DNA of 22,129 nt from a virus. Its lineage: Duplodnaviria; Heunggongvirae; Uroviricota; Caudoviricetes. The position numbers and the translations under genes were made by a program. Positions 8,291-11,690 of this stretch are shown piece by piece. The stretch lies in the IMG/VR virus record IMGVR_UViG_2526164668_000016, positions 1 to 22,129 of that record; one strand, given 5' to 3'. Position 1 is the first letter of the stretch, and every line of letters starts with the position of its first letter. The notes beneath the pieces were generated by a model. The model was not told the DNA's origin and did not search any database. It worked only from the letters and a program-made list of their open reading frames with translations.

Positions 8291-8971
8291 TTATGAAGCC
8301 CGGGCAATAGGCCCACCAGTTAACAGCCACATCGGATCGCAACCAAGCGCATTAGCCAGTGGAATGATCTGGCTTGCGGGGACTTCGCAGATACCGCACT
8401 CCCAGTCGTTTATGGGGTCGTTGTAGGTGTGAATCATGCGTGCCAGGTCTGCTTCTGTCAGTCCAACTTTTTTACGTGCGGCTTCTATACGTGTGCCAAT
8501 GCTTTCCTCCTGGATGTCTGGCTGATTTACGGTAACAGCAGCAGCGCTATTTTTTTCACTCAGCAGAGAAAGAGGATCGCATCCCAGGACATTTGCCATG
8601 GGGATTAGCATGCTGATGGTTGGTTCGTATTCTCCACTCTCCCATTGCAGGATAATCTCTTCGTCAAGATCGAGCAGTCTGGCCAGTTCGGTGGTCGTCA
8701 AACCGCAGGCTTCACGTTGGGTGCTAAGGTTAACCATGTATTCAGGCTGTTTTTCAGGAGCAATATCTTGTCTTGAATAAAAAATTGCGTTTTTTACTTC
8801 GAAGGCGTAATCAGTGGCCAAAGCAACTATGGTATCGCCAATTTCACAGTATTCATGGTTATTTGATGTAGCTAATAAATATCCAGCTTCAAAAAGAACG
8901 GCGGTATTTTTTAGCGCATCCAGTGGGTGCATGGAAAAGCCATTAAAAGTCAGAGTCGGTTTTGCCCTCAT
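8291..8971 (-). CDS. tandem helix-turn-helix (XRE/Cro-C1-type) DNA-binding protein with an extra 75-aa N-terminal domain
   Basis: Two HTH-like segments (…REACGLTTTELARLLDLDEEIILQWESGEYEPTISMLIPMANVLGCDPLSLL… and …AARKKVGLTEADLARMIHTYNDPINDWECGICEVPASQIIPLANALGCDPMWLL…). ATG at 8971 with GGAG RBS, about 27 bp downstream of the OL-like dyad repeats. Confidence 0.6.
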   Translation of the reverse strand: MRAKPTLTFNGFSMHPLDALKNTAVLFEAGYLLATSNNHEYCEIGDTIVALATDYAFEVKNAIFYSRQDIAPEKQPEYMVNLSTQREACGLTTTELARLLDLDEEIILQWESGEYEPTISMLIPMANVLGCDPLSLLSEKNSAAAVTVNQPDIQEESIGTRIEAARKKVGLTEADLARMIHTYNDPINDWECGICEVPASQIIPLANALGCDPMWLLTGGPIARAS

Positions 8972-9005
8972 CTCATTAACTCCATCTATTTGGAATGAGA
9001 GCATA

Positions 9006-9044
9006 ATAGAACCTGCTATAAATTATGGCAATAGCAAGTTCTAT
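9006..9044. promoter_or_regulatory. candidate left operator region (OL-like): two ATAG-N6-CTAT dyads, 11 bp apart
   Basis: ATAGAACCTGCTAT (9006-9019) and ATAGCAAGTTCTAT (9031-9044), between the cI stop and the first leftward gene. The same 14-bp dyad form recurs in the cI-cro intergenic region. Confidence 0.45.
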
Positions 9045-9102
9045 TTTTTTGGGTGATTTTTGTTACCTTATTGATATTTAATAAAAATATTTCCTTTTTG
9101 AT

Positions 9103-9849
9103 TCAAAGCAAAACTGAGTACCAGAATAAACGCCCGATAATATCAACCTTATCAATACTGGTTTCTTCATCTGGGTATTCGTCACTGTTGTAACTGCGGA
9201 TAATCAATTTTCCACCTGGTCTTCTGTGTAGTTGTTTAATGCGCTTTAGTTGTCCGCCACAACCATCATCTTGTCCAATAGCATACAACTTACCATCGAC
9301 AATTCTTTTGTTGTTGGTGTCAATAGCTACGGTCGTTCCATCAGGGATTATAGGCTCCATACTGTTACCAGTCGCCGGAAAACATAGCACTCCACTTCCG
9401 TCAGAGTTTGCGCCGATCCGACGAAGGGTAGCTTTTGAAAACCTAAGTTTTAATCCATTATGATCTTCGCTAATCACTTTCCCAGTACCACACGCAAACT
9501 CAATATCTTTAAGAAAAGGGACTTCAACCTCATCATCACTTAGAGGCGTGTGCTCATCCCACGACTCTATCTTCCCCCATTCGGATTTTGGTGGAATAGA
9601 TGGTTTCTTGTTCTCTGCCCTCATAGAACCTACACCAGAACTTAACCATTCCGGTGTAACACCGAGAGCATTAGCGAGATCGACAATTTTCGTTGTTCCT
9701 CTTGCATTCCCCGATGCTATTCGCCAAATGGTCGGTTGAGCCATGTTTGCTGCCTTAGCCAACTGAGCTTGGCTCATTCCCATTTCGTACATTGCAAAGT
9801 TGAGCCTATCTGCAAGGGTTCTCAACATGCTCATTTGTGATTTCGACAT
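9103..9849 (-). CDS. cI: CI-type prophage repressor (N-terminal HTH, C-terminal S24 LexA-like autopeptidase domain)
   Basis: N-terminal HTH (…MSQAQLAKAANMAQPTIWRIASG…); C-terminal domain with candidate catalytic Ser (GNSMEP) and Lys (QLKRIKQL); GGAGG RBS; divergent from the cro-like gene. Confidence 0.9.
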   Translation of the reverse strand: MSKSQMSMLRTLADRLNFAMYEMGMSQAQLAKAANMAQPTIWRIASGNARGTTKIVDLANALGVTPEWLSSGVGSMRAENKKPSIPPKSEWGKIESWDEHTPLSDDEVEVPFLKDIEFACGTGKVISEDHNGLKLRFSKATLRRIGANSDGSGVLCFPATGNSMEPIIPDGTTVAIDTNNKRIVDGKLYAIGQDDGCGGQLKRIKQLHRRPGGKLIIRSYNSDEYPDEETSIDKVDIIGRLFWYSVLL

Positions 9850-9963
9850 AAATATAGCCTCCGCTATTACATTGTAGATGCGTTCTATAAGTGTGTCTAT
9901 TGCATGGTGGAATAGGCGTTGCTATTATTTTTTGATAGAAAAAGCAATTGTTAGGTGTGTTTT
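9850..9963. promoter_or_regulatory. cI-cro divergent switch region (OR-like) with ATAG-N6-CTAT dyads
   Basis: ATAGCCTCCGCTAT (9853-9866, overlapping the cI RBS) and ATAGGCGTTGCTAT (9912-9925), plus further CTAT/ATAG half-sites. Must contain the divergent promoters for cI and cro. Confidence 0.5.
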
Positions 9964-10215
9964 ATGAAATCAGCGATTGAGAAAGCAATAGATATTGCAG
10001 GGGGCGTAAATGCATTAGCTCGCGCCGTTGGGGTCAAACAGCCATCTGTTTCCCGATGGAGAAAGATTGGACTTGTAGGGGTGGAGCATGTTCCAGACGT
10101 TTCTGCCGTAACAGGGATTCCCGCTCATGAGCTTAGGCCAGATAAGCCAAAACTTTTCCCACACCCAAGCTTAGCGCACACAGAAGATGGAGTGTGCGAA
10201 GGAGATAAACAGTGA
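9964..10215 (+). CDS. Cro-like / YdaS-family HTH regulator
   Basis: 83 aa, MKSAIEKAIDIAGGVNALARAVGVKQPSVSRWRK…; AGGTG RBS; divergent from cI. Confidence 0.75.
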   Translation: MKSAIEKAIDIAGGVNALARAVGVKQPSVSRWRKIGLVGVEHVPDVSAVTGIPAHELRPDKPKLFPHPSLAHTEDGVCEGDKQ

Positions 10216-10919
10216 ACACCGCAATTTTTAACGATAAAGCATCCATGACCAGCGTTGAGATCGCAGAGCTGGTGGGTAGTCAGCACTCAGATGTTAAACG
10301 TAGTATCGAACGCCTGGTTGCTAAAAACATCATCCGGAAACCGCCAATGGCTGTTTCCGAGAAAATCAATAACTTAGGTTTTAAAGTTCAATATGAGCAT
10401 TACCTGTTTGAAGGAGAACAAGGTAAGCGCGACAGTATCATTGTCGTCGCACAGCTCTGTCCTGAATTCACTGCTCGCCTGGTAGATCGTTGGCGCGAAC
10501 TGGAAGAGCAGGTGCGCAAACCAATGAGCGAAATCGAAATGGTTGCCGCGATGGCTCTTGAAGCAGTTCGTCAGCAAAAACGCCTCGACAAGATGGAAGA
10601 AAAAGTTAGCCACGTTGCCGAAACTGTCGAACAAATCAAAAGAGGCACCATACGCGATGGTTATGCAGGATACCGTCAGCTGGTGGCGAAAACAGGTATG
10701 TCAGATGCGAAATGCCGCAATCTGGTGAACGATTATCAAATTCCTACAGACACCCATGAGTTCATGACGCCGGACGGATTGTTGTCACGTCGCGCAATTG
10801 TTGCCGTGGAACCTTTTATGGCTGCTTTTTATCGGGTTATGGAGGAAGCAGAACCGCGAGGGACTCGCTGGTATCACCCGAAAATGGGGTTATTTCAGGT
10901 TATTGGTTGGCAGCGGTGA
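10212..10919 (+). CDS. phage regulatory protein, Rha/antirepressor-like
   Basis: GTG start overlapping the cro stop (GTGA) with GGAGA RBS; N-terminal MTSVEIAELVGSQHSDVKRSIERL resembles the Rha-family signature (S..IAE..GK.H.NVLRDI) as recalled. Confidence 0.55.
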   Translation: MNTAIFNDKASMTSVEIAELVGSQHSDVKRSIERLVAKNIIRKPPMAVSEKINNLGFKVQYEHYLFEGEQGKRDSIIVVAQLCPEFTARLVDRWRELEEQVRKPMSEIEMVAAMALEAVRQQKRLDKMEEKVSHVAETVEQIKRGTIRDGYAGYRQLVAKTGMSDAKCRNLVNDYQIPTDTHEFMTPDGLLSRRAIVAVEPFMAAFYRVMEEAEPRGTRWYHPKMGLFQVIGWQR

Positions 10920-10942
10920 AAAAAAGCCGGGAGTAACCCGGC
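10919..10942 (-). terminator. intrinsic terminator for leftward transcription (GC stem GCCGGG/CCCGGC plus T7 on the minus strand)
   Basis: Plus strand reads A7-GCCGGG-agtaa-CCCGGC; on the minus strand this is stem-loop followed by a U7 run. Confidence 0.45.
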
Positions 10943-11327
10943 TCACTCAACATCAATAACGGGGAGCTGTTTCGCATAAAACGGCTCCGAAACATCCAAG
11001 AACAGTTCTAAAGATATCAGCAGCTATATGATCATTTCAAGACCAAATATTGATTCTGCAATTTCGGGACGTTACACTGTCTCTGCACCTTATAAAGCGG
11101 GTGCCGGGGGTCGCAGCCCGGAATTGATCAAGGCGATATACGACGCGCCAGCGTCTTTTTTATCGTCTGCGCTCACGCACGCCAGAATTATGGTGGGCTG
11201 GGCAGGGGAGCCGAAAGGCTCGCCGGTTTCCTTGATCGCCGGTACTGCGAACCCTGTTCAGTTCACCACCCATGAGTTTCGCAGCTCCGGTGGTGGAAGT
11301 TTTTCACCGATCAAGGAGGCTGCCATC

Positions 11328-11690
11328 ATGGCTACAGTCCCAACTTCCCCATTCCTCAAAATCGAAGTCGTCAACGGCAAAGCTGTTATTTTCTCCCTGC
11401 ATGTTGCCTGCCACTTTAAGCGCATGCACCAGAACATCGTCGACAAAATCGAGTATCTGAACTGCTCGCGCGAATTTTTTACCCGCAACTTCATACCGGG
11501 TACTTACCACATCTATGGTGACTCCCTGCGTGGTTATTACATCACCCTTGATGGCCTGATGATGCTTCAGCTTGGGTTAAGTCTACGCACAATGCGGTAC
11601 TACGAGAGCTGCATTGGAGCATTCCATGAGGCTGAAACCAGCCTGAATCACACTGCTTTTCGCCGTAATCAATGGGAGGTACGCCCATGA
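11328..11690 (+). CDS. phage regulatory protein, Rha-family-like (120 aa)
   Basis: ATG at 11328 with strong GGAGG RBS; …AVIFSLHVACHFKRMHQNIVDKIEYL… fits the Rha-type motif. The longer frame from 11028 is probably not translated. Confidence 0.5.
   Translation: MATVPTSPFLKIEVVNGKAVIFSLHVACHFKRMHQNIVDKIEYLNCSREFFTRNFIPGTYHIYGDSLRGYYITLDGLMMLQLGLSLRTMRYYESCIGAFHEAETSLNHTAFRRNQWEVRP

Follow-up and report, generated by a model that had tools for sequence, protein, structure and literature searches.

ATAG-N6-CTAT dyads around cI of an Escherichia coli Stx2 prophage as probable operators of a phage 434-style immunity switch

In phage lambda the cI gene lies between two operator clusters, the promoters PR and PRM are divergent, one operator site serves to shut off cI, and the prophage is induced by RecA-stimulated self-cleavage of the repressor. 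The lambda operators are 17 bp long, repressor dimers pair cooperatively at a distance of 24 bp, the left and right operators (OL and OR) are 2.3 kb apart, and PRM, which yields a leaderless transcript, depends on activation from OR2. In phage 434 the recognition helices of repressor and Cro share the start Q-Q-S-I. Here we describe the immunity region of a 22,129-base stretch of Caudoviricetes DNA (IMG/VR record IMGVR_UViG_2526164668_000016, positions 1 to 22,129; hereafter the window), in which a preliminary description had noted a repeated 14-bp dyad, ATAG-N6-CTAT, on both sides of a cI-type repressor gene. We consider it highly likely that these dyads are the operators of a prophage lysis-lysogeny switch, read by CI dimers through a helix-turn-helix (HTH) domain of the 434 type; Cro very probably shares these sites with CI. 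Among known systems phage 434 comes closest, and the dyads are of a familiar type, with an operator sequence that the papers searched do not contain. Since the dyads are almost certainly CI/Cro sites, the locus would be an ordinary 434-style immunity switch, and nothing in it challenges the current understanding of phage switches.

The similarity to 434 extends to the proteins as well as to the operators. In both systems a 434-type HTH is followed by a C-terminal self-cleaving S24 domain, and cro is divergent from cI. The CI protein of the window (9103-9849, minus strand; 248 amino acids; Pfam HTH_3 and Peptidase_S24) has the recognition helix AQPTIWRIASG, and its N-terminal domain aligns without gaps to the DNA-binding domain of the 434 repressor, its best match in the Protein Data Bank (E = 7e-6). 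Its S24 self-cleavage residues, C120-G121, G-x-S163-M-E-P and K202-R203, do not vary in an alignment of 13 relatives. The Cro-like lytic repressor (9964-10215, plus strand; 83 amino acids; Pfam YdaS_toxin and P22_Cro) contains the HTH sequence ...GVKQPSVSRW..., and among solved structures it is closest to the Cro chain 3bd1; it is YdaS/P22_Cro-like, unlike the Cro of 434. These domain matches bear out the original assignment of the two genes as cI and divergent cro. CI and Cro have a common helix start, Q-P-[ST]-[IV], which would suit two proteins reading one half-site. Like the dyads, the operators of 434 (ACAA-N6-TTGT) are 14-bp 4-N6-4 sequences whose outer 4-mers do not vary and whose centre does. 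OL1 of 434, as annotated in its genome, occupies the spacer of PL and reaches into the -10, an arrangement also seen here. The two systems differ in the recognition helix (Q-P-T-I-W-R vs. Q-Q-S-I-E-Q in 434) as well as in the half-site, in the spacing of the sites (25 and 33 bp vs. 21-23 bp), and in that two left-hand sites are seen in our locus. With lambda the locus shares the general logic outlined above and a distance of about 24-25 bp between the centres of adjacent sites; it differs in the length of the operators and in the OL-OR distance, which is about 0.9 kb.

The exact pattern ATAG-N6-CTAT occurs four times in the window (9006-9019, 9031-9044, 9854-9867 and 9912-9925), and all copies are confined to the two gaps bordering cI, two between cI and the first leftward gene and two between cI and cro. 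From 100 dinucleotide-preserving shuffles 0.23 copies would be expected, and none of the shuffles reached four. Four copies, two on each side of cI, had been reported before; the scan agrees with this, and corrects the third coordinate, given as 9853-9866, by one base. When up to one mismatch was allowed, 11 sites were found against 6.6 expected, therefore one-mismatch copies have no meaning by themselves, and those at 6069, 6616, 6799 and 9796 were judged to be chance matches. Escherichia phage ASU11, recorded as an Stx2-encoding phage of E. coli O80:H2 that was induced with mitomycin C, is 99.8% identical to positions 8200-10300 and has the same four dyads. The rest of its genome lacks the motif: in the complete ASU11 sequence (44,227 bases) it occurs exactly four times (0.21 expected), all at the same places.

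The positions of the dyads coincide with those of promoter-like sequences (predicted transcription starts were placed 7 nt after the -10, and no strand is assigned to the dyads). The left pair consists of the exact sites ATAGAACCTGCTAT (9006-9019, promoter-proximal, OL1-like) and ATAGCAAGTTCTAT (9031-9044, distal, OL2-like), which overlap a predicted leftward early promoter, PL (9003-9031, minus strand), with -35 TTGCCA (9031-9026), a 17-nt spacer and -10 TATTAT (9008-9003). PL is sigma-70-like, with 10 of 12 consensus matches in our scan and a predicted start near 8996. The proximal site overlaps the spacer and the first three nucleotides of the -10; the distal one, whose variants alter the spacer only, abuts the -35 with an overlap of one nucleotide and has its centre at about -41.5. 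On the right, site A (ATAGGCGTTGCTAT, 9912-9925, exact, OR1-like) and site B (ATAAGTGTGTCTAT, 9887-9900, one mismatch, OR2-like and weak) take the corresponding places on the predicted PR (9900-9928, plus strand; -35 TTGCAT at 9900-9905, 17-nt spacer, -10 TATTAT at 9923-9928, start near 9935). PL and PR are of one design: the last T of the distal site begins the -35, the proximal site starts six bases past the -35, and its last TAT opens the -10 (CTAT followed by TAT). On both promoters the proximal site covers about -23 to -10 and the distal site, 25 bp upstream, about -48 to -35. The PR layout is conserved in five loci, and the PL module is also kept in the SaltyDalty, Superficieibacter, Pantoea and Pluralibacter loci. 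Repressor control of the leftward operon, as proposed in the preliminary description, is the natural reading of a left pair which mirrors the right pair.

Site C (ATAGCCTCCGCTAT on the plus strand, 9854-9867, exact, OR3-like), 33 bp from site B, is placed differently. It extends from about -3 to +11 relative to PRM, the predicted maintenance promoter of cI (9871-9899, minus strand; -35 TAGACA at 9899-9894, 17-nt spacer, -10 TACAAT at 9876-9871), the best cI promoter in the scan (10 of 12 consensus matches), whose predicted start near 9864 falls inside the dyad. The -35 of PRM is contained in site B. The six-base spacer of site C holds the Shine-Dalgarno sequence of cI, GGAGG, 8 nt from the ATG. 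It had been suggested that this copy could autoregulate cI, and this fits the family-wide occurrence of a dyad on or near the cI ribosome binding site (see below); since site C also covers the predicted start of the cI transcript, it would act on transcription. It is invariant among the aligned relatives; generally in the alignments it is the 4-mers and the promoter hexamers that stay constant and the spacers that vary. Relatives and close variants alike keep the 4-mers of site A and differ in its spacer.

Both exact right-hand sites of the preliminary description were found, but its count of two appears too low. A Pantoea prophage (L043), a Superficieibacter prophage (L086) and phage SaltyDalty (L093) keep not only the PRM sequence, TAGAC[AT]-17-T[ATG][CG]AAT, but also the position of site B and its mismatched half (ATAGAC-N4-TTAT in cI orientation), thus the right-hand operator appears to have three sites, two exact and one weaker. 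A fourth, weak site may exist at the predicted start of PR (ATAGAAAAAGCAAT, 9935-9948, one mismatch). In an E. coli variant 96% identical to the window it reads ATAG-N6-CAAT and is shifted by 1 bp; because distant relatives conserve only one half (ATAGC), we keep it as a possible site. The three distant loci share the complete five-site layout, that is A, B 25 bp further on, C (ATAGCGGAGGCTAT) after a further 33-34 bp on the ribosome binding site, and a 25-bp-spaced pair downstream of cI, and the CI of the Superficieibacter prophage is 38% identical overall to that of the window. Close variants give the same picture on a shorter scale. ASU11 has a changed spacer base in two of its four dyads, and when ASU11 and two E. 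coli variants of 96-97% identity (L096 and L098) were compared with the window, about 20 differences were found in the two gaps, several of them in dyad spacers and none in any 4-mer.

If the dyads are operators, they should change together with the recognition helix. A database search yielded 780 relatives of CI, many of which share the C-terminal domain and differ in the N-terminal helix. Scanning genome contigs with the single CI protein found no relatives; a scan with an alignment of 13 same-helix relatives detected 80 cI loci in 80 bacterial species, which together with the window make up a set of 81 cI loci. An exact ATAG dyad was present at most about 130 bp upstream of cI in 9 of the 14 loci with the helix QP[ST][IV]W[RK] and in 1 of the 67 others (Fisher p = 7e-8, which is no true probability because the loci are related). 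Among the 47 loci with a recognisable HTH, 33 have a perfect 4-N6-4 dyad starting between -28 and -17 of the cI start, where about 0.07 would be expected per locus. The 4-mer varies with the helix: SQAAIQK[IL] pairs with ACAA (21/23), AQPTIWR[IL] and AQPSVWKL with ATAG (9/10), SQPAIQKL with ATAA, and KQASISEI with AAAG. It must be noted that the relatives are not independent of each other, and that all the evidence is comparative. A side observation concerns CI relatives in Pectobacterium and Brenneria (L016-L029 and others), which have the helix SQAAIQKIE and ACAA-N6-TTGT 25 bp upstream of cI. The outer 4-mers are those of the 434 operators, and it is possible that SQAAIQKIE and the QQSIEQLE of 434 are two helices reading one half-site.

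A search of IMG/VR that used only DNA pointed in the same direction. The module formed by sites A and B, ATAG-N6-CTAT-N11-ATAGAC-N4-TTAT, matched 54 contigs; the match fell in an immunity region in 53 of them, and was an AT-rich chance match in one. In 51 of these 53 a CI with the QP[ST][IV] helix and/or a Cro with the KQPSV helix is encoded within 1.5 kb. Forty-three matches are right-operator regions, with cI of the AQPT[IV]WR type and divergent cro of the KQPSV type where the flank is available, and site C reads, in cI orientation, ATAGCGGAGGCTAT in 39 of the 43 and ATAGAGGAGACTAT in the other four. In each of the 35 right-operator contigs with enough sequence, two exact sites spaced by 25 bp follow downstream of cI. 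The remaining 10 matches are left-operator regions of another clade with the CI helix KQPSVASW. In this clade (cro helix KQPSVFAW; L103, L105, L115 and others, at about 1201 in the extracted region) ATAG dyads were seen in the same PL module, ATAGCTACACCTAT-TGACAT-N5-ATAGACATGTTTAT-AGT. A natural swap was found in E. coli JNEC-KY176, where between homologous flanks there are a different cI (helix AQSSVNKL), a different cro, and ATCG-N6-CGAT dyads in place of the ATAG ones. What supports the OL/OR arrangement of lambdoid phages, to which the dyads had been likened, is that the dyads follow the recognition helix from genus to genus and are exchanged along with the immunity genes.

From these features we infer binding, order of occupancy, cooperativity and transcription starts as follows. 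CI on the proximal sites would exclude RNA polymerase at PL and PR, and the centre-to-centre spacing of 25 bp, which is close to the 23-24 bp of cooperatively bound repressor dimers in lambda and 434, would fit pairwise cooperative binding of CI. Site C would let excess CI, or Cro after induction, turn off cI transcription (negative autoregulation). CI contains the complete S24 self-cleavage motif, hence SOS-induced cleavage would free all sites at once. The alignment with the 434 repressor also offers a clue to how the half-site may be read. In 434 repressor Q28 contacts the first adenine of the operator and Q33 contacts positions 4-5; Q38 of CI aligns with Q28 and R43 with Q33. A contact between Arg/Lys at the place of R43 and the G at operator position 4 is plausible.

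We considered whether the operators might be read mainly or only by the Cro-like protein, with CI using other sequences. Cro accompanies the dyads in nearly all loci, and its KQPSV helix correlates with ATAG as well as the CI helix does. In the Symbiopectobacterium loci, however, an intact cI and three ATAG/ATAC-type dyads are retained and cro is absent, which points to CI as a reader of the sites. Furthermore, the two gaps contain no other repeated dyad, a site at the cI ribosome binding site and promoter occurs throughout the cI family, also in clades whose Cro is different, and to our knowledge CI and Cro share operators in every lambdoid switch that has been studied. That the sites are read mainly or only by Cro seems quite unlikely. 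The cro-less cI genes are of some interest in themselves. They were seen at about 2420-2490 in loci L011-L015 (Symbiopectobacterium, Serratia), in several Symbiopectobacterium genomes, without cro or replication genes and adjoining a 144-169-amino-acid open reading frame (ORF) and apparent host genes, and may encode a domesticated or orphan repressor.

The left pair could also be the autoregulatory site of the first gene product of the leftward operon rather than a CI operator. This gene (8291-8971, minus strand) lies directly downstream of the pair, and its product has two HTH_3 domains behind a small N-terminal domain (phrog_4587/4739). The ATG at 8971, preceded by GGAG at 7 nt, is its likely start; a longer ORF begins at 9004, which is less likely as a start because it is upstream of the predicted start of PL. 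Against a private operator of this protein, the left and right sites have one motif and one promoter geometry, and the pair occurs in SaltyDalty, in the Pantoea prophage and in all 35 of the viral contigs mentioned above, where the leftward genes differ or were unexamined. In the Superficieibacter prophage the first leftward gene, as judged from the ORF list, encodes no HTH and the pair persists, and we rejected the two-HTH protein as owner of the left pair, giving this alternative very little credence. The small phrog_4587/4739 domain recurs at the C-terminus of the product of the next gene (7704-8087, minus strand), and in the Superficieibacter prophage a small domain of this type alone makes up the first leftward gene. 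In ASU11 both the first leftward gene and cro are labelled 'putative CII repressor'; both labels look unfounded. Domain and family searches of the products encoded at the start of the leftward operon revealed no N-type antiterminator.

Another possibility is that site C acts in the RNA, as a hairpin hiding the Shine-Dalgarno sequence of cI. The palindrome can indeed pair as a 5-bp stem with the Shine-Dalgarno sequence in the loop, but the fold (-5.2 kcal/mol, z-score -0.62) is no better than that of shuffled sequences, 51 of 200 of which folded at least as well, and the predicted start of PRM lies inside the dyad, so that the 5' arm of the hairpin would be missing from the mRNA. This explanation, too, appears very improbable, and we rejected it. 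Least credible of all is that the dyads are chance palindromes or by-products of the promoters with no protein reading them: the region is AT-rich and two half-sites overlap -10 hexamers, but four copies were observed against 0.23, the promoter-distal halves and site C lie outside any -10, the 4-mer differs from one recognition helix to another under a constant layout, and a uniform density across related genomes was looked for and not seen, the regions other than those upstream of cI having 12 exact sites in 458 kb, of which eight belong to left-operator pairs downstream of cI.

Several observations do not sit easily with reading the dyads as operators of a switch of the 434 type. Three Morganella/Providencia loci with the helices QPTIWK and QPSIWK have no upstream ATAG dyad; a strict rule by which the helix motif implies ATAG fails for them, and the motif alone does not fix specificity. 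PL, PR and PRM are consensus matches with predicted starts, and PR was read by eye, having been left uncalled in the consensus scan because its -35 matches at three of six positions. On the left, the window and all relatives show two sites, and not three as in lambda and 434. Finally, the middle site B is centred at about -29.5, on the predicted -35 of PRM, rather than at about -42. The PRM of 434 has OR3 in its spacer and the centre of OR2 at about -43.5, whereas in the window the predicted start of PRM and the Shine-Dalgarno sequence are under the third site and its -35 is under the middle one. Because of this placement the positive-autoregulation logic of lambda and 434 is not simply transferable, and positive autoregulation of cI cannot be assumed. 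The relatives L031 and L035, with a 25/25 spacing of the sites, fit a 434-like geometry (-41.5).

This brings us to a more tentative idea, which we regard as possible and somewhat doubtful, namely that the cI promoter is wired unlike that of lambda or 434, CI only repressing its own synthesis, and that the Q-P-[ST]-[IV] start of CI and Cro goes with ATAG in several clades. It would be consistent with a PRM which looks intrinsically strong and has its -35 in a weak middle operator and its start and Shine-Dalgarno sequence in the third one, a layout kept, together with the conserved mismatch of the middle site, in Escherichia, Pantoea and Superficieibacter. If true, there would be a small natural recognition table (ACAA, ATAG, ATAA, AAAG, ATCG) on one scaffold. 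Such covariation of helix and half-site on one 434-like scaffold could supply orthogonal repressor-operator pairs.

It is also useful to compare the locus with phages that have similar repressors. Sequenced Escherichia phages that we assign to this immunity type are ASU11, SaltyDalty and Fraca. SaltyDalty, with the helix AQPTIWRI, has ATAGCGGAGGCTAT on the ribosome binding site as part of the layout described above; the CI of Fraca matches in its N-terminal domain with 74% identity, equal to that of SaltyDalty. The cI repressors of BTP1, ST104, SE1 and 4A7 (helix AQPTIWRL) are 65-68% identical in the N-terminal domain. Of these, BTP1 and 4A7 were examined: they have the Cro helix KQPTVWRW and, between cI and cro, sites starting with ATAG. 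Unlike those of the window, these dyads combine ATAG with ATAC halves (ATAGCAATGCGTAT, ATACGCAAGCGTAT), and they are laid out differently. The records of ASU11, SaltyDalty and Fraca annotate genes and no operators. In the literature library that was searched, we found no paper mentioning the motif, ASU11 or the operators of this immunity type, and likewise nothing relevant on the operators of phage phiP27.

Ten E. coli chromosomes match the 8200-10300 stretch at 99.5% identity or more along most of it, and several further E. coli, O145 and O157 strains among them, match it at 96-99%. The match to phiP27 is confined to the gene on the right of cro, so the immunity cassette is a mosaic module. 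A concrete operator sequence and layout can thereby be assigned to the immunity type of these E. coli Stx2-converting prophages (ASU11-like, and also in O145 and O157), which allows prediction of homoimmune prophages and of the places where cleavage of CI would release early transcription. This release is the first step of prophage induction, and hence of toxin release.

Some further features of the window deserve mention. The start of cI (9826-9849, minus strand, and the corresponding part of L096 and L098) is given differently in different records: the RefSeq protein has 241 amino acids and begins with MLRTLADRL at the eighth codon, and in ASU11 the upstream ATG is used. We favour the 248-amino-acid form because GGAGG stands 8 nt before the upstream ATG and is conserved in relatives.

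No Rfam family scored above chance in 8900-11100. To the right of the immunity region, Rfam identified above its gathering scores the Hfq-binding RNA isrK (11085-11161, plus strand; 57.6 bits) and a C4 antisense RNA (11186-11273, plus strand; 85 bits). Both are inside an ORF (11028-11690) with Pfam domains Ash and Rha, annotated in ASU11 as a putative antirepressor. This looks like a second, RNA-based immunity layer in the style of P1/P7 which controls an antirepressor, and the 'Ash' part of the ORF may consist largely of RNA genes. Between the Rha gene and the Ash gene there is a minus-strand promoter-like site (11011-11040; TTGAAA-18-TATCTT with an upstream TG), followed about 70 nt downstream by an intrinsic terminator on the same strand (10924-10944). 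Together they suggest that a short antisense RNA resembling lambda oop is made. The spacer and the -10 of this promoter contain an ATAG dyad with one mismatch (ATATCAGCAGCTAT, 11014-11027), placed as the proximal sites are on PL and PR; it could be there by chance.

At the distal end of the window two tRNA genes were found by Rfam (18849-18921 and 19021-19094, both on the plus strand), where ASU11 has its tRNA genes, just upstream of stx2. Beyond them are the small RNA STnc100 (19867-20060, plus strand; 142.7 bits) and the anti-GcvB small RNA AgvB (20062-20123, minus strand; 88.7 bits).

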